Assembly (NCBI GenBank): GCA_038062955.1 | Contig: JBBTWE010000001.1 | Location: 627,985 to 691,984 of the forward strand | Direction: 5' to 3' | Length of the DNA stretch: 64,000 nt | DNA from: Patescibacteria group bacterium | GTDB taxonomy: Bacteria; Patescibacteriota; Minisyncoccia; Phycocordibacterales; BOKC01 | Shown: piece by piece, positions 741 through 56,944 of the stretch | Numbering within the stretch: the stretch's first letter is position 1 | Layout of the letters: the number at the start of each line of letters is the position of its first letter | The notes under the pieces: model-generated | Told to the model about the DNA's origin: nothing | The model's database searches: none | Seen by the model: only the letters and a program-made list of their open reading frames with translations | Position numbers and translations under genes: made by a program

Positions 741-2124
741 TAATTACCAGACTATTTTCCGTATTACTGTTCGATGTTAAGACATACAGCTTGTCATCCT
801 CACAATCAAACGCGACCGGTTTTCCTGGCAAATCAATATCGTGAATCACATCAAGCAGATTATCTTCATCCAGACTTAAAAAGTGAATTTTATTCACTGT
901 GCCCAAGGTGGAAGCTACGATCAAAATATTATCCCGCAAAATTAAATCCCTAACACTAAAACCTAATCTTTTTGATGCTTTGAGATTCAAACCACCGCCC
1001 TCAACATCAAACAGAAAAATTTCATGATAAGTTGGCCCAGGACTTAAAACCGAACGCCCAAACGCGAGTAAGTTGTCATTTATGGCTACTGTTTGCCCGC
1101 CATGTTGAGTTAAACCTCCTGCTTCATAAGAATTAATTGATTGTATATTTTGATAATTCCCTGTATCGAGCACGCGAAGAGGGGTGGGGTTGGGTACAGC
1201 AACAAAAGCAAAGTCTTCTTTAAAAGCAATAGCGTTTACTTTTGTATCAACTCTGAAACTGCCAAGATACTGTGGAGCGGATGGAGTTGAGACATTAATA
1301 ATATGAAATTCTTTCCCCCAATTATTCTTCTCCGACCCAAGATATATTTTTTTATCTTTATAAAAAATACTTGATTGAGTCGTTGTACTAGAAGGTTCAG
1401 GCAACCTAAACTCTGAAAGAATTTGCGGACTTGCTGGATTTTCAACATTTAAAATTTGAAGTTGTCTTGCAGTTGACCCCGTGGCTAAATAAGCATATTT
1501 GCCTGCAACTTTTAAAGAAACGAGTCTACGACCAGAGCCAAAATTATTTGAAATAAATTCTGGATTATTAACATCCGACACATCAACCACTAAAAAGTTC
1601 GGGGAAATAATTGAATCAATTGTTATATAAGCCTTACCGCGAACGACATCGATATCGGTTACCTCATTCAACACATCAAGCGGAAATGTTTGGAGAATCT
1701 CATAGTTTTCTGAATTTTCAAACCGGCGGAAACATGTGTCGCCACCGATCGCATCTCTCCAGTTTGATACGTACAGAGGCAATTCGACTTCATGAAGATC
1801 GATATTTAATTTTCGAACTTTGCTTTTAATCTCTTTCGTATAGTCGTAGAGCAAAGAAACTTCTAAATTTTCTTGAATATCTTCATTAATTTCCTCACCA
1901 GACTCCAGGTTCTCGAAATCAAAACGGCCCCTAGCTTTAGCTTCCTCTAAATTAAATTGGGAGACAGATAGGGAGTCCTCATAAATTTTCAAATTCATTA
2001 AAATAGTCTGATTGCCAAATGACACCATAAACACAGAGGCTATCGTGACAGAAAAAACAAAAAGAGCGATCAAAATCTCTATCAAACTAAAACCTTTTGA
2101 ACCTTTTTTATTAAAATCATTCAT
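721..2124 (-). CDS. large pseudopilin-like protein (prepilin-type N-terminus with repeat-rich, beta-propeller-like body)
   Basis: N-terminus KGFSLIEILIALFVFSV prepilin motif; 467 aa with repeated motifs in the body; start overlaps the downstream pilin gene, suggesting one operon. Confidence 0.5.
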   Translation of the reverse strand: MNDFNKKGSKGFSLIEILIALFVFSVTIASVFMVSFGNQTILMNLKIYEDSLSVSQFNLEEAKARGRFDFENLESGEEINEDIQENLEVSLLYDYTKEIKSKVRKLNIDLHEVELPLYVSNWRDAIGGDTCFRRFENSENYEILQTFPLDVLNEVTDIDVVRGKAYITIDSIISPNFLVVDVSDVNNPEFISNNFGSGRRLVSLKVAGKYAYLATGSTARQLQILNVENPASPQILSEFRLPEPSSTTTQSSIFYKDKKIYLGSEKNNWGKEFHIINVSTPSAPQYLGSFRVDTKVNAIAFKEDFAFVAVPNPTPLRVLDTGNYQNIQSINSYEAGGLTQHGGQTVAINDNLLAFGRSVLSPGPTYHEIFLFDVEGGGLNLKASKRLGFSVRDLILRDNILIVASTLGTVNKIHFLSLDEDNLLDVIHDIDLPGKPVAFDCEDDKLYVLTSNSNTENSLVIIGKNND

Positions 2125-2622: not shown

Positions 2623-3714
2623 CTATCTCCTTTGGAGAGAATGCGTAACCTCATAAACAGGGGAGACAATGGATATGGCGACAAAACCAACAATGATACC
2701 AGCGACTATAAGTAAAACTGGTTCTACTGTTTGAGATAAATTTTTAACTTTTTCCACAAATTGATTTTCATGAAAATCGGCCAAATTAATTAAAATCACT
2801 AGAATATTGCCAGTTTCTTCCGCCACTGCGAGAAGATCAGTAAAATTTTCTGGGAATATTTCTGGGTGTTTCAATAAATAATGAGACATTCGACCTCCTG
2901 CGGAGACGAACTTGTGGAGTTTCAAAATATGAAAACGCAAAGGTAAGTTGGTGGTCGCAGTCTCTATTGTGAGCAAAGCTATATCAATGGAAAGACCACT
3001 TTTAAGAAGCAGGCTTAAATTGCGACAGAAATTTGTAAGCAGAAAATCTTGGTAAATTGAACCTATAATAGGTATTCTGAAGCTAAAAAGTTGAACAAAA
3101 AAACGAAATTTATTATTTTTCTTTAGTAGAATTAAAAAAATAATAAGTAAAATTGAAAGAACAATCAAAATTAAAATTCCATAATGACTCACGACCCCGC
3201 TTACAAAAATTACCGCTCTAGTTGTTATCGGTAGTTCAATATTCAAACTCCTAACAATCGGCAAAATCTTAGGAAAAATATAAAGGATCAAAAAAACAGT
3301 AATACCAATCGTAGCGAATGCGATAAAGAGTGGGTAGACAAAGGCCTGCTTCAAATTTTTAAGCATTTCTTTCTTTTTTTTCAATCGCAAAGTGAGATAT
3401 GAAATATTATCAGACAAAAAACCGCTTCTCTCGCCAGTTAAAATAATATTTAAAGCAAAGTCATCAAATATATGCCTTAGACTTTGAGTCAGAGTAAGTC
3501 CTTCAGAAATATCATGCCTGATTTTTTCATAAACCATTCGACGATTTTTGTTTTTGGTTTGATTTTTTATCAGTTCAAGACTCTGTAAGATAGATACTCC
3601 TGAATTCAAAAGAAAAGAAAGCCTTTCCGTAAAATGAATTTGTTCTTTTAAAGACAGAGTTTTCTTTTGCCTTCTCTTGAAAGTTTTTTTAAAAATAGCA
3701 AATAACTTATTCAT
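2623..3714 (-). CDS. pilC: type IV pilus or T2SS platform protein, GspF/PilC family
   Basis: Duplicated T2SS-F domain pattern with a polytopic membrane body. Likely start is MNKLFAIFKK at 3714; the 3798 start in the ORF track would overlap the upstream ATPase by 92 nt. Confidence 0.7.
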   Translation of the reverse strand: MNKLFAIFKKTFKRRQKKTLSLKEQIHFTERLSFLLNSGVSILQSLELIKNQTKNKNRRMVYEKIRHDISEGLTLTQSLRHIFDDFALNIILTGERSGFLSDNISYLTLRLKKKKEMLKNLKQAFVYPLFIAFATIGITVFLILYIFPKILPIVRSLNIELPITTRAVIFVSGVVSHYGILILIVLSILLIIFLILLKKNNKFRFFVQLFSFRIPIIGSIYQDFLLTNFCRNLSLLLKSGLSIDIALLTIETATTNLPLRFHILKLHKFVSAGGRMSHYLLKHPEIFPENFTDLLAVAEETGNILVILINLADFHENQFVEKVKNLSQTVEPVLLIVAGIIVGFVAISIVSPVYEVTHSLQRR

Positions 3715-5709: not shown

Positions 5710-7983
5710 ATGAAAACAAAAGAGTATGTCCTAGAGGTTAATGGGAAAAATTTAACTTGTGAATTCAATGATCTAGCCAACCAAGCGAACGGTTCATGCA
5801 TCATAAAATATGGAGACACTAGTGTCTTAGCAACTGCGGTGATTTCAAAATTTCCAAAAGACAATTTTGATTTCTTTCCTTTAACTGTAGATTTTGAAGA
5901 AAAATTTTACGCCATTGGTAAAATTTTGGGCGGGCAGTATACCAAGAGAGAAGGACGGCCAACAGATGACGCGATACTTTCTGGGAGAATTGTTGATCGT
6001 ACTATTCGTCCACTTTTTGAAGATCATATTCGACATGAAGTTCAGGTGACACTTACAGTTTTGTCTTTAGGAGAAGATGATCCAGATGTTCTCGCTGTCA
6101 TTGCGGCGTCACTCGCTCTGGGTACTTCAAACATTCCTTGGCGAGGACCAACGAGCGCTATTCGAATTGGAAAATATAAAGAGTATTCAACTCCAAAACC
6201 CTTTGATCCGTCTTCGCTCGCGCATCATGAGAGTGAGTCGACAGGATCATTGTCGACACCTGTAAACGGCACTCTCGCGATGCCGCTCGCTAGCCGGAAT
6301 AAAAATAAAAAAGATTTAATAATTAACCCGACTTACAAAGAAAGAGGAGACGCCGAATTTGAATTTGATGTACTCGCCTGTGGTAAGGACAATACCTTAA
6401 ACATGATAGAAGCCGCCGGCAAAGAAACGAAGGAGGAAGATTTGAAACAGGCTTTGCAAAAAGCAGTTCTAGAAATAGAAAAAATTCAAAACTTTCAGAA
6501 AAAAATAATCGAAGAAATTGGCAAAGAAAAACTAGTTATTGAAAAAATAAAGACACCTGAAAATATTGAGAAGGTTTGGGAAGAATCGATTGCTCCGCAA
6601 ATTAAATCTGCGATCTTCAGTGACATGCCGATTTTTGAAAACAGAGGAGAAGAGTTTACATCCCACAAAAAGAAGATTCGAGATTTAGAAGAAGTCTGGA
6701 TGGAAAGTTTTGCTGAGAAAAATCCAAACGTAGATACTAATTTAGCTAAAAATTATTTTGAGATAAAAGTAAATGATCTGATTCACAAAGAGGCAATCGA
6801 AAATGACAGGCGTCCAGACGGCAGGAAGATCGATGAGCTCCGACCGCTTTTTGCCAAAGCTGGTGGCATCTCCAAAATTTTGCATGGTTCTGGAATATTT
6901 TACAGAGGAGGTACTCATGTTTTCTCTGCTCTAACTTTGGGCGGACCTGGCGATTCACAAACAATAGATGGAATGGAAACTCAAACACAGAAAAGATTTA
7001 TGCATCATTATAATTTTCCTCCTTTCTCGGTTGGTGAAACTGGAAGAATGGGAGGTATGAACAGAAGAGCCATCGGTCATGGAGCGCTCGCAGAAAAAGC
7101 TTTGCTTCCGATTTTGCCAGAAAAAGAAAATTTTCCTTACACGATAAGAGTGGTCTCGGAGTGCATGGCATCCAATGGTTCAACCTCGATGGCTTCGGTC
7201 TGCGCTGGAACTTTGGCTCTCATGGATGGTGGAGTTCCAATAAAATCTCCAGCGGCGGGTGTTGCGATCGGACTCATGATGCAAGGAGAAAAATATAAAA
7301 TTTTAACCGATATTCAGGGACCAGAAGATCACTATGGGGATATGGATTTTAAAGTGGCTGGGACAAAAAATGGTGTTACGGCTATCCAAATGGATGTCAA
7401 AGTGGAAGGAATTCCTATGCATATTCTTTGTGAAGCTTTAGATCGAGCCCAAAACGTGAGAGAACAAATTCTTAGAAAGATCCAAGAAGAAATAAAAAGC
7501 TCACGAGAAACAATATCTCCAAATGCTCCAAGGATCATGATTGTCAAAATCAAACCGGAGCAGATCGGACTTGTAATCGGTCCTGGAGGAAAATCAATCA
7601 ATCAAATAAAGGAGTTGACAGGGGTAGAGATTGATATAGAAGAAGACGGTAGTGTTTTCATTACTGGAAAAAATGACGGCCCAGAGAAAGCGGCAGAGAT
7701 GGTGAGAGGAATGACCAAAGAATACAAGGCTGGTGAAAGGTTCACCGGAGAAATAACAAAAATAGTTGAGTTTGGTGCTTTTGTTCGAATTGGCCAAAAA
7801 ACAGAGGGCCTCCTGCACATTTCTGAAATTGCCACCACAAGAATAGAAAAGGTAGAGGACATCTTATCTATTGGAGAAAAAATTCCTGTTATAATAAAAG
7901 AAATGGATGACAAAGGAAGAATGAAATTATCCTTGAAAGCCATCGAACCGGAGTTTTTCAAAAATAGGCCTAAGAAACGATAA
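5710..7983 (+). CDS. pnp: polynucleotide phosphorylase (PNPase)
   Basis: Two RNase PH-like domains followed by KH and S1 domains (C-terminal GERFTGEITKIVEFGAFV). 757 aa including a roughly 40-aa insertion, described in findings. Confidence 0.9.
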   Translation: MKTKEYVLEVNGKNLTCEFNDLANQANGSCIIKYGDTSVLATAVISKFPKDNFDFFPLTVDFEEKFYAIGKILGGQYTKREGRPTDDAILSGRIVDRTIRPLFEDHIRHEVQVTLTVLSLGEDDPDVLAVIAASLALGTSNIPWRGPTSAIRIGKYKEYSTPKPFDPSSLAHHESESTGSLSTPVNGTLAMPLASRNKNKKDLIINPTYKERGDAEFEFDVLACGKDNTLNMIEAAGKETKEEDLKQALQKAVLEIEKIQNFQKKIIEEIGKEKLVIEKIKTPENIEKVWEESIAPQIKSAIFSDMPIFENRGEEFTSHKKKIRDLEEVWMESFAEKNPNVDTNLAKNYFEIKVNDLIHKEAIENDRRPDGRKIDELRPLFAKAGGISKILHGSGIFYRGGTHVFSALTLGGPGDSQTIDGMETQTQKRFMHHYNFPPFSVGETGRMGGMNRRAIGHGALAEKALLPILPEKENFPYTIRVVSECMASNGSTSMASVCAGTLALMDGGVPIKSPAAGVAIGLMMQGEKYKILTDIQGPEDHYGDMDFKVAGTKNGVTAIQMDVKVEGIPMHILCEALDRAQNVREQILRKIQEEIKSSRETISPNAPRIMIVKIKPEQIGLVIGPGGKSINQIKELTGVEIDIEEDGSVFITGKNDGPEKAAEMVRGMTKEYKAGERFTGEITKIVEFGAFVRIGQKTEGLLHISEIATTRIEKVEDILSIGEKIPVIIKEMDDKGRMKLSLKAIEPEFFKNRPKKR
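6208..6297. repeat. GC-rich palindromic element embedded in-frame within pnp
   Basis: Local GC far above the surrounding gene; contains gtcgacacctgtaaacgg, which matches 33285..33302 at 17 of 18 positions, plus wider homology to the 33213..33322 insert. Confidence 0.5.
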
Positions 7984-54598: not shown

Positions 54599-56272
54599 TT
54601 ATTCCAAAAGGTCAATAACTCTCTCAAGTTCGCTTATCGAAGTGATGCCTTGGAGAACTTTTAGTATCCCATCTTGTTTCATGTTTAAAATATTTTGGTC
54701 TAAAGCGGCCTTATTTATTTCTCTTTCGCTTGGATTTTGCTCAACAATCTCTTCTATTTTTTGATTGGTTAGTATAGCTTCATAAATTCCAATTCTGCCT
54801 CGGAATCCTGATGAATGGCACTCCGAACAACCAACCGGCTCGAAATTAAATTCGGTCTGAATGTTTTCTAAGTAACTTTTATCTTGAATAGCCTCCAATG
54901 TTTTTTTAACTAAATCTTTCTTTTCTGGAGTGAGAGGAATCTTTTTCTTGCAAGATTCGCAGAGCTTTCTTACTAGCCTTTGAGCGATTGCAATGTTTAT
55001 GGCCGAGGTCAGGACTTTTGGGTTTACTCCTAAGTCAATGAGCCTTGGAAAAGAACCGGCGGCGGTATTGGTGTGGAGAGTGGTAAAGACTAAATGTCCG
55101 GTAAGTGCGGCATTTATTGCGATTTCCGCAGTGTCTCTGTCTCTGATTTCACCAACCATTATGACATCAGGGTCTTGTCTTAAAGCAGAGCGCAAACCCT
55201 CCAGAAAGGTATAACCTTTTTCTTCGTTGGTTTGAGTTTGGACGATGCCGGATAAATGATATTCAACAGGGTTCTCGATGGTGATTATTTTTATTTCAGG
55301 AGAATAGATTTTTTTCAGGAAAGCATAAAGAGTGGTAGTTTTGCCGCTTCCCGTTGGGCCAGTTGTCAAAATCATTCCGTTTGGTTTACCCGCTTCACGA
55401 AGCAATATTTTAAGCAGGCGGGGATTAATACCCAAATCTTCAAGCGGCACCCCAATAGATTTTGGATTTAAAATTCGAAGCACGATGGTCTCGCTTTCTG
55501 CAACTGGCAAAATAGATGTTCTTATTTCTATCTCTTCTTCTCCTAGTTTTATGCTGAATCTGCCATCTTGACCTTTACTAGTAACATTTAATTTCAGATT
55601 TGAAAGAAGTTTTATTCGAGAAAGGATCAATTTATACGTCGATAGGTCAATATCTAAAACGTCAACTAAAACTCCATCCATACGGAAGCGGAGCCTGACA
55701 TTTTTTTCTTCCGGTTCCATGTGAATGTCAGAAGACTTGGTAGAAAGAGCGCCCGCGAGCATGATTTCCAAAATTCGAGTAATCCTGTAAGCTTTTTTTG
55801 AAGTTAAATCCTCTTCAATTAATTTTTTTATTTTTTCTAAATCGCTAGCTTCTTTTAAAAATTCAACGATTTCTGCGCTTGAAATTTCAAGCGACCCAGC
55901 GTGAATTTCTTTATTACCTGATAAATCTTTATATCTCTCCCAAATCCTTTCCAAACTCTCACGAGAGACCATGAAAATTATTGGTTCGAAGCCTTTTCTT
56001 TTTAAATCTTCTACCACCTCCAAACTTTTAAGATTTTCCGGCGAAAGTAGCCCTAGGTGTATTTTTTTGTTGATGATGTTGAAAGGAGCGAGTTCTGCTT
56101 CTCTTGCGTCTTTCTCGGAAACCTCGAGAAGCGCGGCCATATTTATTCCTCCCATACTCAAATCTTTGTATGGCACCCCATGTCTCTTAGCAAGAATCTC
56201 TGTTAAATTTTCCGCCTCTACCTTTTTGAGCTCGGTAAGTCTCTGTTTTTGTTTTTCTTCGTTGAATTTCAT
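54599..56272 (-). CDS. pilB: type IV pilus assembly ATPase PilB (GspE family, full length)
   Basis: N-terminal GspII-like domain, Walker A GPTGSGKTT, and tetracysteine motif CESC...CSECHSSG. Confidence 0.85.
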   Translation of the reverse strand: MKFNEEKQKQRLTELKKVEAENLTEILAKRHGVPYKDLSMGGINMAALLEVSEKDAREAELAPFNIINKKIHLGLLSPENLKSLEVVEDLKRKGFEPIIFMVSRESLERIWERYKDLSGNKEIHAGSLEISSAEIVEFLKEASDLEKIKKLIEEDLTSKKAYRITRILEIMLAGALSTKSSDIHMEPEEKNVRLRFRMDGVLVDVLDIDLSTYKLILSRIKLLSNLKLNVTSKGQDGRFSIKLGEEEIEIRTSILPVAESETIVLRILNPKSIGVPLEDLGINPRLLKILLREAGKPNGMILTTGPTGSGKTTTLYAFLKKIYSPEIKIITIENPVEYHLSGIVQTQTNEEKGYTFLEGLRSALRQDPDVIMVGEIRDRDTAEIAINAALTGHLVFTTLHTNTAAGSFPRLIDLGVNPKVLTSAINIAIAQRLVRKLCESCKKKIPLTPEKKDLVKKTLEAIQDKSYLENIQTEFNFEPVGCSECHSSGFRGRIGIYEAILTNQKIEEIVEQNPSEREINKAALDQNILNMKQDGILKVLQGITSISELERVIDLLE

Positions 56273-56387
56273 CCCGTACGAAGTAGGACACGGACTAAAT
56301 AAATTATGTCGTGCCTACTTTTAATTAAATATTAATATTAAGTTTTAACTTATAACCCTGCCAGGTGTCCGTGACTTCGTACGGGAT
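56271..56387 (-). promoter_or_regulatory. long-range inverted repeat upstream of pilB whose start-proximal arm overlaps the pilB start codon
   Basis: Arms 56271..56295 and 56367..56387 (atcccgtacgaagt...cacggac) flank a 71-nt AT-rich loop; homologous to the dnaA upstream structure. Confidence 0.5.
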
Positions 56388-56430
56388 TCATTATTACAAA
56401 TTGTCTCCTAAATAATACTCTTTTTTACAT

Positions 56431-56464
56431 AAAAAAACACCCGCAAGTCCTATGACTGCGGGTG
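56431..56464 (-). terminator. Rho-independent terminator (minus strand) at the left edge of the GC-rich island
   Basis: On the minus strand: caccCGCAGTCatagGACTTGCGGgtg followed by TTTTTTT. Confidence 0.55.
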
Positions 56465-56502
56465 GTGAACGATTTTCTTCCCTTTTTCTGCTCGACGCTC
56501 CT

Positions 56503-56608
56503 GTAGCACACCCCCCATCGTATTCGGTGTTCTGCTACCAGATCGTCCAAGGGGGTTCTATTACCCTTATGTAGCACACCCCCTCCATCGTATTCGGTGT
56601 TTTGCTAC
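56503..56608. repeat. two direct hairpin repeats (36 and 38 nt) separated by a 32-nt unique spacer (CRISPR-like mini-array)
   Basis: Unit 1 is gtagcacaccccccatcgtattcggtgttctgctac (56503..56538). Spacer is cagatcgtccaagggggttctattacccttat (56539..56570). Unit 2 is gtagcacaccccctccatcgtattcggtgttttgctac (56571..56608). Each unit folds as gtagca...tgctac with an inner cacc/ggtg stem. Confidence 0.4.
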
Positions 56609-56944
56609 TTAAGAAATGAGCTGTGGGGGTTTTCTTGCCTACCTTCTTGTGAAGGCAGACAAACATCATTCATAGGGGCTCAATCCTATGACGGCCCTGC
56701 TACGGGGCAAAGATGAGGCGTTTCTGCCTGCATCCACAAGGAAGAAATCGTTATGTGAGAAAAACATCTCAAACCGTCCTAAAACGGTAGGTGTTCTTCT
56801 CATGTCTCTCAAGGTGCTGTTCCTTGGACACACTAGCATGAGGGAGGTGGGGTGTCAAGGAGAATCAGCTTGCGTTTATTTTTAATCTATGATATAGTCG
56901 CAATAGATAAAGTTCTTTAACAATCAACCAAAAAGGAGGCTCAA

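Follow-up and report, generated by a model that had tools for sequence, protein, structure and literature searches.

We consider it quite likely that two hairpin-forming repeats and the spacer between them, at positions 56503-56608 of a 64-kb stretch of DNA from a Patescibacteria group bacterium (hereafter the window, to whose full length the coordinates refer), are a genuine minimal CRISPR array (short palindromic repeats that are clustered and regularly interspaced), situated within a compact minus-strand guide-RNA unit of a Cas14e-type type V system of Patescibacteria. The protein encoded next to the array, the repeat and the scaffold RNA that precedes it all belong to the Cas14e family, and the unit lies on the minus strand. 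Its proposed order is a promoter (56858-56830), the scaffold (56804-56613), the repeat-spacer-repeat array (56608-56503) and a trailer with a terminator (56464-56431). The locus is a reduced, cas1-less member of a named but uncharacterised CRISPR family; CRISPR-Cas14e loci were reportedly described by Harrington et al. in 2018.

The array was recognized both by reading the sequence and with a repeat finder, a check suggested in the preliminary description of this DNA, which returned the same pair. On the minus strand, the leader-proximal repeat (R2) occupies 56571-56608 (38 nt, GTAGCAAAACACCGAATACGATGGAGGGGGTGTGCTAC) and the distal repeat (R1) 56503-56538 (36 nt, GTAGCACACCCCCCATCGTATTCGGTGTTCTGCTAC in plus-strand letters), with R2 differing from R1 by one mismatch and a 2-nt insertion. 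R1 has the corresponding 2-nt deletion, yet its 3' handle, GGGGGTGTGCTAC on the minus strand, is complete. The single spacer (56539-56570, minus strand; ATAAGGGTAATAGAACCCCCTTGGACGATCTG in the sense of the CRISPR RNA, crRNA) is unique and 32 nt long, within the range of 29-35 nt of 138 family spacers, and the start-to-start spacing of the repeats on that strand is exactly 70 nt. The hairpin direct repeats of 36 and 38 nt and the unique 32-nt spacer of CRISPR dimensions that had been described earlier were borne out by sequence reading, repeat finder and fold. The full repeat, with three mismatches or fewer, and the 13-nt core at its 3' end were found only at these two sites in the 64 kb, for which the chance expectation is about 0.02 matches, and a common dispersed hairpin, which the preliminary description had named as the observation that would speak against it, was not seen. 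What is generally expected of a CRISPR array was found here, namely at least two direct repeats of 23-47 nt with a unique spacer of similar length, an adjoining cas effector gene (cas14e-like, 337 nt away) and a conserved leader with a promoter; of cas1, the locus has only a 37-codon pseudogene fragment.

The adjoining gene (56945-58219, plus strand), which is divergent from the scaffold-array unit, encodes a protein of 424 amino acids (aa) from a GTG start and is followed by its own intrinsic terminator at 58223-58262 on the same strand. The 337 nt that separate the end of the array from the GTG at 56945 agree with the distance of about 340 nt upstream of a TnpB-like gene given earlier. The protein is MEK7552460.1 of a Patescibacteria metagenome-assembled genome (MAG) and has 79 clear homologues, almost all of them from Patescibacteria MAGs and metagenomes. 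Among these is its orthologue P0016, GenBank QBM02463.1, 'CRISPR-associated protein Cas14e.1', which is 51% identical to it across 99% of the length (E 2.7e-131). Matches to general profiles were more limited, comprising NCBIfam guided_TnpB (E 4e-6, profile positions 2-339 of 389 only) and, weakly, Pfam HTH_OrfB_IS605 (E 0.005).

Loci of 58 relatives were fetched: 39 came from metagenomes, 16 from genomes of GTDB species, and three were located by looking up the exact protein. In almost all of them a Cas1 of roughly 233 aa is encoded 55-100 nt after the effector, and arrays are present with a period of 70-73 nt, repeats of 39-41 nt and spacers of 29-35 nt. The family repeats share the 3' half GGGG(G)TAYGCTAC, and the cas14e-cas1-array cassettes sit in unrelated genomic contexts. 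The 13 nt at the 3' end of the minus-strand window repeat agree with the family consensus ...GGGGGTATGCTAC at 12/13 positions. Arrays downstream of the gene carry the repeat orientation on the gene strand, arrays upstream of it (loci L012, L016, L019, L023, L036, L038, L039 and L041) are the reverse complement of the downstream ones, the leaders are gene-proximal, strongly conserved and 5' of the arrays, and every array reads outward from the cas gene. Since the window repeat matches the family only as its reverse complement, the array is an upstream, outward-reading array on the minus strand; its 3' end, its 70-nt period and its direction away from the gene are those of a Cas14e locus.

Many relatives have inverted twin modules, each with promoter, scaffold, array and terminator, that flank cas14e-cas1, with leaders that are 99-100% complementary, trailers that are 94-99% complementary and different spacers. 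Such twin modules were observed in L012 (3647-3895 / 6032-6280), L016, L019, L038 and L041, and the near-identical leaders combined with differing spacers imply that the non-coding modules underwent gene conversion or were recently duplicated. A perfect (100%) inverted repeat of 1415 nt in L039 (1-1415 and 3579-4993) includes identical spacers and may be an assembly artefact, not a true twin array. In the Cas14e.1 locus (L001, 4856-7910) the cassette lies inside a conserved ribosomal protein operon, between rplB (L2) and rpsS (S19).

The leaders of the family proved to be a structured RNA of about 175-215 nt, which in the window measures about 190 nt (56613-56804, minus strand), has five helices and lies directly 5' of the array. 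A covariance model, R1, was built from 22 homologous leaders with the window excluded (alignment A4; 174 positions, 34 base pairs), and it matched the window over its full length at 113.4 bits (E 2.8e-28). This was the sole strong match in the 64 kb, the next being an 18-bit match to the palindromic first stem read backwards. The model found a copy beside essentially every array, in the orientation of the array. In a model-guided alignment of 43 distinct copies, 95.8% of the cells in helices were paired, versus 43-51% when partners were slid, 22 of the 34 pairs showed changes on both sides, and the covariation score was 0.595 versus at most 0.112 in the slid controls. The scaffold had no match in Rfam at gathering or E-value thresholds.

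Three long-range pairings connect the scaffold with the repeat or with the bases just before it. In the first, (a), a GC-rich hairpin has a 7-nt loop (xGTAGCx) that complements the last 6-7 nt of the repeat, with covariation; in the second, (b), the segment after GAAA(A) complements the G-run of the repeat plus a T; and in the third, (c), the loop of the next hairpin (TGAGC) complements GCUCA just before the first repeat. In the window, all on the minus strand, these are GTAGCA (56703-56698) with the repeat end TGCTAC, ACCCCC (56630-56625) with the repeat GGGGGT, and TGAGC (56682-56678) with GCUCA (56621-56617). Across the family the partners change together. For pairing (a), the scaffold loop and the 3' end of the repeat are GTACCG and CGGTAC in L016, GTTACCC and GGGTAAC in L019, GTGCCGT and ACGGCAC in L038, TGTCAG and CTGACA in L017, GTATCG and CGATAC in L018, and GTAGCC and GGCTAC in L012. 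For pairing (b), scaffold ACCACCC faces repeat GGGTGGT in L012, L043 and L044, ACGTCC faces GGACGT in L014 and L051, AGCCC faces GGGCT in L047, and ACCTTC faces GGAGGT in L010. For pairing (c), the loop and its partner are GTGAAT and ATTCAC in L009, TGGTCA and TGACCA in L055, and GCCAA and TTGGC in L019.

The complementarity within loci exceeded that between mismatched loci, with the observed mean reached in 0/2000 permutations for (a), 0/2000 for (b) and 10/2000 for (c). The pairs of this pseudoknot were counted on a structure-naive MAFFT alignment (A3) that was not fitted to the model, and there the 17 pairs were 92.4% paired versus 33-49% when slid, with compensatory change in 10 of them versus 3-7 in the slid controls; the sixth pair of (a), for example, is A-U in 18 sequences, G-C in nine and C-G in seven. 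Two segments of the scaffold show covariation with the 13 nt that end the repeat, and so behave as a split anti-repeat. A search for a classic trans-activating CRISPR RNA (tracrRNA), as the longest repeat complement in 19 loci, found nothing consistent, the anti-repeat being split into two segments of 6-7 nt.

The RNA architecture of Cas12f and TnpB offers the closest comparison for the scaffold, as the segment immediately 5' of the guide is held in a like manner by the tracrRNA of Cas12f and by the omega-RNA pseudoknot of TnpB. Common to both is a long structured scaffold whose pairing with the repeat, immediately 5' of the guide, takes the form of a pseudoknot or of short split duplexes, and on the basis of this resemblance the RNA is read as a tracrRNA/omega-RNA-like scaffold. 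The window scaffold differs in its placement, being directly upstream of the array and co-oriented with it, not at the 3' end of the gene.

The hairpin within the repeat itself, to which the preliminary description had drawn attention, is present as described. Each repeat has an outer stem GTAGCA/TGCTAC and an inner stem CACC/GGTG, and the folding energies of the repeat RNAs are -10.6 and -10.7 kcal/mol (z about -1.9). It is not what the family conserves, however: RNAalifold found for the repeat's own hairpin only a weak stem of a C-run with a G-run, with almost no compensatory change, and only some of the family repeats have the terminal GTAGCA/TGCTAC palindrome. We therefore do not claim the hairpin as the functional feature. 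The outer stem and the scaffold pairing use the same 3' nucleotides of the repeat, and what is conserved in the family is the pairing of the repeat 3' end with the scaffold, not the repeat's own hairpin.

In the subfamily with palindromic repeats, the anti-repeat loop of the scaffold (GTAGCAG, 56703-56697 in the window) has the same sequence as the 5' end of the repeat (56608-56602). The same identity was seen in L005 (6096 versus 6169), and in L001 and L005 the loop lies about one period (73 nt) upstream of the first repeat. These identities and spacings are compatible with arrays arising by duplication of the 3' part of the scaffold. A tandem duplication of leader plus repeat was also considered for the window, on the ground that the spacer segment GGTAATAGAACCCCC resembles the scaffold segment GGCAAGAAAACCCCC at 12/15 positions, and was rejected as being at chance level (19/1000 shuffles and 6/138 real spacers do equally well).

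Signals for expression of the unit were also identified. The promoter (56830-56858, minus strand), as read from the sequence, has a -35 element TTGACA (56858-56853), a 17-nt spacer and a TG-extended -10 element, tgcTAGTGT (56838-56830), which ends 25 nt before the scaffold, the modal distance in the family. A sigma-70-type promoter of the form TTGAC(A/T/G)-16/18-(TG)nTAnnnT, with the -10 element ending 22-30 nt before the scaffold, is present in about 30 of 34 homologous loci. At the other end, a trailer (56465-56502, minus strand), which begins AGGAGCGTCGAGCAGAAAAAGG..., lies between the distal repeat and the intrinsic terminator of the array transcript (56423-56468, minus strand; stem 56464-56438, U-run 56437-56431). 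The terminator placed at 56431-56464 in the preliminary description is real, appearing in the fold as a clean hairpin followed by U7. The fold of the predicted transcript (minus strand, 56823-56425) has an energy of -145 kcal/mol (z -6.4). Arrays of homologous loci are likewise ended by an intrinsic terminator, usually after a last repeat that is truncated at its 3' end. In relatives the last repeat is usually cut before the 3' handle and is followed by a shared 'CACAAGGAA'-like motif and the terminator, as in L001 (7497-7535), L012 (6525-6565), L029, L043, L044 and L055; the last repeat of the window keeps its handle.

The effector is predicted to have the miniature fold of TnpB and Cas12f. 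Its AlphaFold2 model has a predicted local distance difference test score (pLDDT) of 86, and the best Foldseek matches of the model in the PDB were TnpB (8h1j, E 1.6e-12) and AsCas12f (8j12, E 2.6e-11), at 10-15% identity, with a natural dCas12f (9n9c) also among the top fold matches. Neither the RuvC D-E-D triad nor the zinc-finger TNB domain of an active nuclease of this kind was found in it. The RuvC-I motif GVDLG aligns with v-a-l-G-a-s, as far as can be judged from sequence alignment to a solved TnpB-type protein, the only such alignment; the motif is VSLGAS in the window, and Ala, Ser or Thr occupies the Asp position family-wide. The position that we take, from motif comparison with TnpB, to be that of the RuvC-II Glu is a Thr in 'VVTD/E', with an unconserved acidic residue beside it. 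The protein ends shortly after an LxxK...GG...V strand, in a helix without a conserved acidic residue, and no CxxC pair or Zn-ribbon Pfam match was found in any of the 79 homologues. The whole Cas14e-type family thus seems, judging by its sequences, to lack the RuvC-I, -II and -III catalytic residues and the zinc finger, and from the motifs and the model the effector is probably nuclease-dead and C-terminally truncated, as are TldR and dCas12f. The suggestion made earlier, that the array is a guide locus for an inactivated TnpB-like protein, is upheld by the Cas14e family membership, the repeat type, the scaffold and the missing RuvC residues, and is amended in that the protein is not a transposon TnpB and that transcription of the unit is predicted to follow the minus strand, leading away from the gene.

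Taken together, these features suggest how the locus would work. One minus-strand transcript of about 390 nt would be made and processed into a crRNA composed of the repeat 3' handle and the 32-nt spacer. This crRNA would pair with the scaffold, in the way of a Cas12f tracrRNA or a TnpB omega-RNA pseudoknot, and load the effector, and the resulting complex would bind complementary DNA without cutting it, DNA binding without cleavage being what is expected of an effector that lacks the RuvC residues and the zinc finger. Without Cas1, the array would be frozen at one spacer. Because the distal repeat keeps a full handle, the trailer could be loaded as well and may serve as a second, fixed guide, whereas the last repeats of most relatives are truncated.

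Binding-only action is known for Cas12m (PMC10691335). The proposed likeness is that a cleavage-deficient type V effector would protect by means of acquired spacers, blocking transcription or replication, and the difference is that Cas12m and Cas12c are larger and keep a RuvC domain that is partly active or serves RNA processing. Cas12c stands alongside Cas12m as an instance of binding-only CRISPR immunity.

In comparison with the Cas14e.1 locus, which has an orthologous effector (51%) and the same repeat type, 70-nt period, scaffold, promoter and terminal terminator, the window lacks a functional cas1 and a downstream array, and its sole array is upstream, inverted and limited to a single spacer. 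Cas1 directly downstream of the effector, followed by a downstream array, is present in almost all relatives and absent here. A profile of Cas1 from 27 loci matched only 58276-58386 in the window (plus strand), a pseudogene remnant of the N-terminal 37 codons in which ATG has changed to ATA and two in-frame stops have arisen (I-NALWLNRIFA*KIQSFLPKPQKVLLEFKF*K); 16/37 residues are identical to the N-terminus of the L023 Cas1. Its distance from the effector stop, 54-57 nt, equals that of cas1 in L001. Downstream of it, at 58982-59027 (plus strand), is an outward-facing terminator that is 91% complementary to 56423-56468, the terminator region of the array, the two forming the right and left arms of a 46-nt inverted repeat that is unique in the 64 kb and, if small indels are allowed, extends to about 65 nt. 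Both arms are intrinsic terminators that face outward, and together they bracket a cassette of 2.6 kb. We interpret the right-hand terminator as the trailer of a lost downstream array. Cas1 and the second array have been lost in this genome, and only the upstream module remains in the window, with effector, scaffold, promoter and terminator intact. The small size of the array can be traced to this decay of the locus, yet arrays of two repeats are also present in cas1-positive loci (L010/L041, L029 and L055), so that one spacer is the ground state of the family and not in itself a sign of exaptation. Other relatives in which cas1 is absent or decayed are L021, L043, L027/28 and L042/52. L021, the closest relative with context (57% identity), is also without cas1 and has on each side (1100-1350, minus strand; 3300-3640, plus strand) about four strongly diverged repeats, one with an insertion of roughly 25 nt, as expected for arrays that are no longer renewed.

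Searches for targets of the guides yielded nothing above chance. Seeds of the spacer and the trailer, allowing mismatches, had no match on either strand of the window, neighbouring promoters included; exact 22-24-mers of the window spacer, the trailer and three spacers of relatives gave no target in IMG/VR; and the window spacer had no target among INPHARED phages or PLSDB plasmids. The spacer search proposed in the preliminary description thus gave no target in the window, IMG/VR, phages or plasmids. When the 138 family spacers were compared with all fetched loci, the results were negative or at chance level.

Several points weigh against a working Cas14e-type unit whose effector binds without cutting. 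Having lost cas1, the locus could be heading for complete decay. Neither the spacer nor the trailer yielded a protospacer in 64 kb of a roughly 0.7-Mb genome or in IMG/VR, nor did the spacer among phages and plasmids. The alignment used for the helix counts was fitted to the covariance model, so those numbers lean towards structure. In addition, D262 and D343 of the effector are invariant, as is the acidic residue E314, and on the model a rearranged active site is conceivable as an alternative to nuclease inactivity.

Three other explanations were weighed. According to the first, which we think rather unlikely, the dead effector and its frozen guide or guides were kept after the loss of Cas1 as a domesticated, RNA-guided transcription factor for a host gene. 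The remains of cas1 beside an intact effector, scaffold, promoter and terminator would fit this, as would the region of array and scaffold, which four other assemblies from this groundwater population share with 100% identity, and the full handle on the distal repeat, which makes a fixed trailer guide possible. There are also precedents in TldR (PMC10705468) and in dCas12f with or without sigma-E (PMC13472631), which are C-terminally truncated, RuvC-inactive, guide-RNA-directed DNA binders; some dCas12f lie near CRISPR arrays, and array-linked dCas12f repressors are among the precedents (PMC13472631). Against it, no seed of the spacer or trailer matched within the window, and small size alone is not evidence given the two-repeat arrays of cas1-positive relatives. 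The likeness to the precedents is also incomplete. TldR has a single omega-RNA-type guide at the 3' end of its gene and a host-promoter target, whereas the guide of the window is in an upstream repeat-spacer array on the opposite strand and no host target was found within 64 kb. The operonic rpoE partner and array loss of dCas12f-sigmaE systems are likewise not seen, an array being present and rpoE missing among the neighbours; the window locus has no rpoE, HTH (helix-turn-helix), fliC or oppF partner, and its host phylum, Patescibacteria, is a different one. Furthermore, the Cas14e family keeps Cas1 and growing arrays and so looks adaptive, unlike the fixed-guide TldR and dCas12f regulators. 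In its specific form, that a Cas14e without Cas1 and RuvC residues acts with the scaffold and the frozen one-spacer array, and possibly the trailer guide, as a chromosomal regulator of transcription, we judge the proposal unlikely.

The second explanation, that array and scaffold are non-functional leftovers of a dying CRISPR locus, appears improbable to us. It would account for the reduction of cas1 to a 37-codon fragment with stops, the deletion of the downstream scaffold and array, and the divergence of the two repeats by one mismatch and a 2-nt indel. It is harder to reconcile with an effector reading frame of full length that retains 82 of the 86 positions at least 90% conserved in the family (95%, within the 80-100% retained by cas1-linked members), with a scaffold that scores 113 bits and in which all three long-range pairings match the locus's own repeats, and with an intact promoter and terminator. 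The third, that the element is not CRISPR at all but a dispersed hairpin resembling repetitive extragenic palindromic (REP) sequences, the end hairpins of an IS200/IS605 element or a tandem duplication arisen by chance where promoters diverge, is contradicted by the findings and barely credible: palindromic repeats beside a TnpB-like gene and a 46-nt inverted repeat around the cassette might evoke it, but there are only two repeat copies in 64 kb and a single copy of the cassette in the window, there is no tnpA, the orthologues lie in fixed cas14e-cas1-array cassettes, the orthologous gene is accompanied in about 55 loci of unrelated context by repeats of this type and period and by the same leader RNA and terminator, and the inverted repeat is explained by the twin-array architecture.

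The identification of a minimal Cas14e-type CRISPR array and guide-RNA unit leaves a few features of the surroundings to be described. In place of cas1, scaffold and array, the region downstream of the effector contains a 159-aa open reading frame (ORF) with its own promoter-like site (58466-58945, plus strand). It has no Pfam match and no homologue but itself among 5.8 billion proteins; it is a gene specific to this lineage or else a spurious ORF. That it could be an accessory cas gene, or a decayed one, was rejected, since it had no Pfam, homologue or Cas1-profile match. The neighbours of the locus are a pilB-like ATPase gene, ruvB, an ORFan, tsaE and polA. The pilB-like ATPase gene (minus strand, 54599-56272) has its start codon covered by one arm of a perfect inverted repeat of 14 nt (56271-56284 / 56374-56387), with additional imperfect pairing between the arms, which suggests a long hairpin in the 5' untranslated region that could mask translation initiation.

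The 106 nt of the array are the visible tip of a complete, compact guide-RNA unit, and with it several features of the Cas14e family are defined here, namely its promoter, the direction in which the unit is read, the arrangement in twin arrays and a scaffold whose anti-repeat is split. In the searchable literature we found no description of a Cas14e guide scaffold, promoter, transcription direction, twin-array architecture or family-wide loss of RuvC residues. The difference from Cas12f and TnpB, with which the effector shares 10-15% identity and, according to its model, a miniature fold, lies in the missing RuvC triad and zinc finger. A family that seemingly has no nuclease site, yet has Cas1 and growing arrays, raises the question of how a binding-only effector of roughly 420 aa would immunise its host. 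If it does work by binding, it would amount to a programmable DNA binder that is very small and naturally dead. The cas1-less, single-spacer form in the window stands as a natural intermediate step from an adaptive CRISPR system to a regulator with a fixed guide, and if it does act as a regulator, it would represent an independent, CRISPR-array-based route to a TldR-like factor in the genome of an ultra-small episymbiont.

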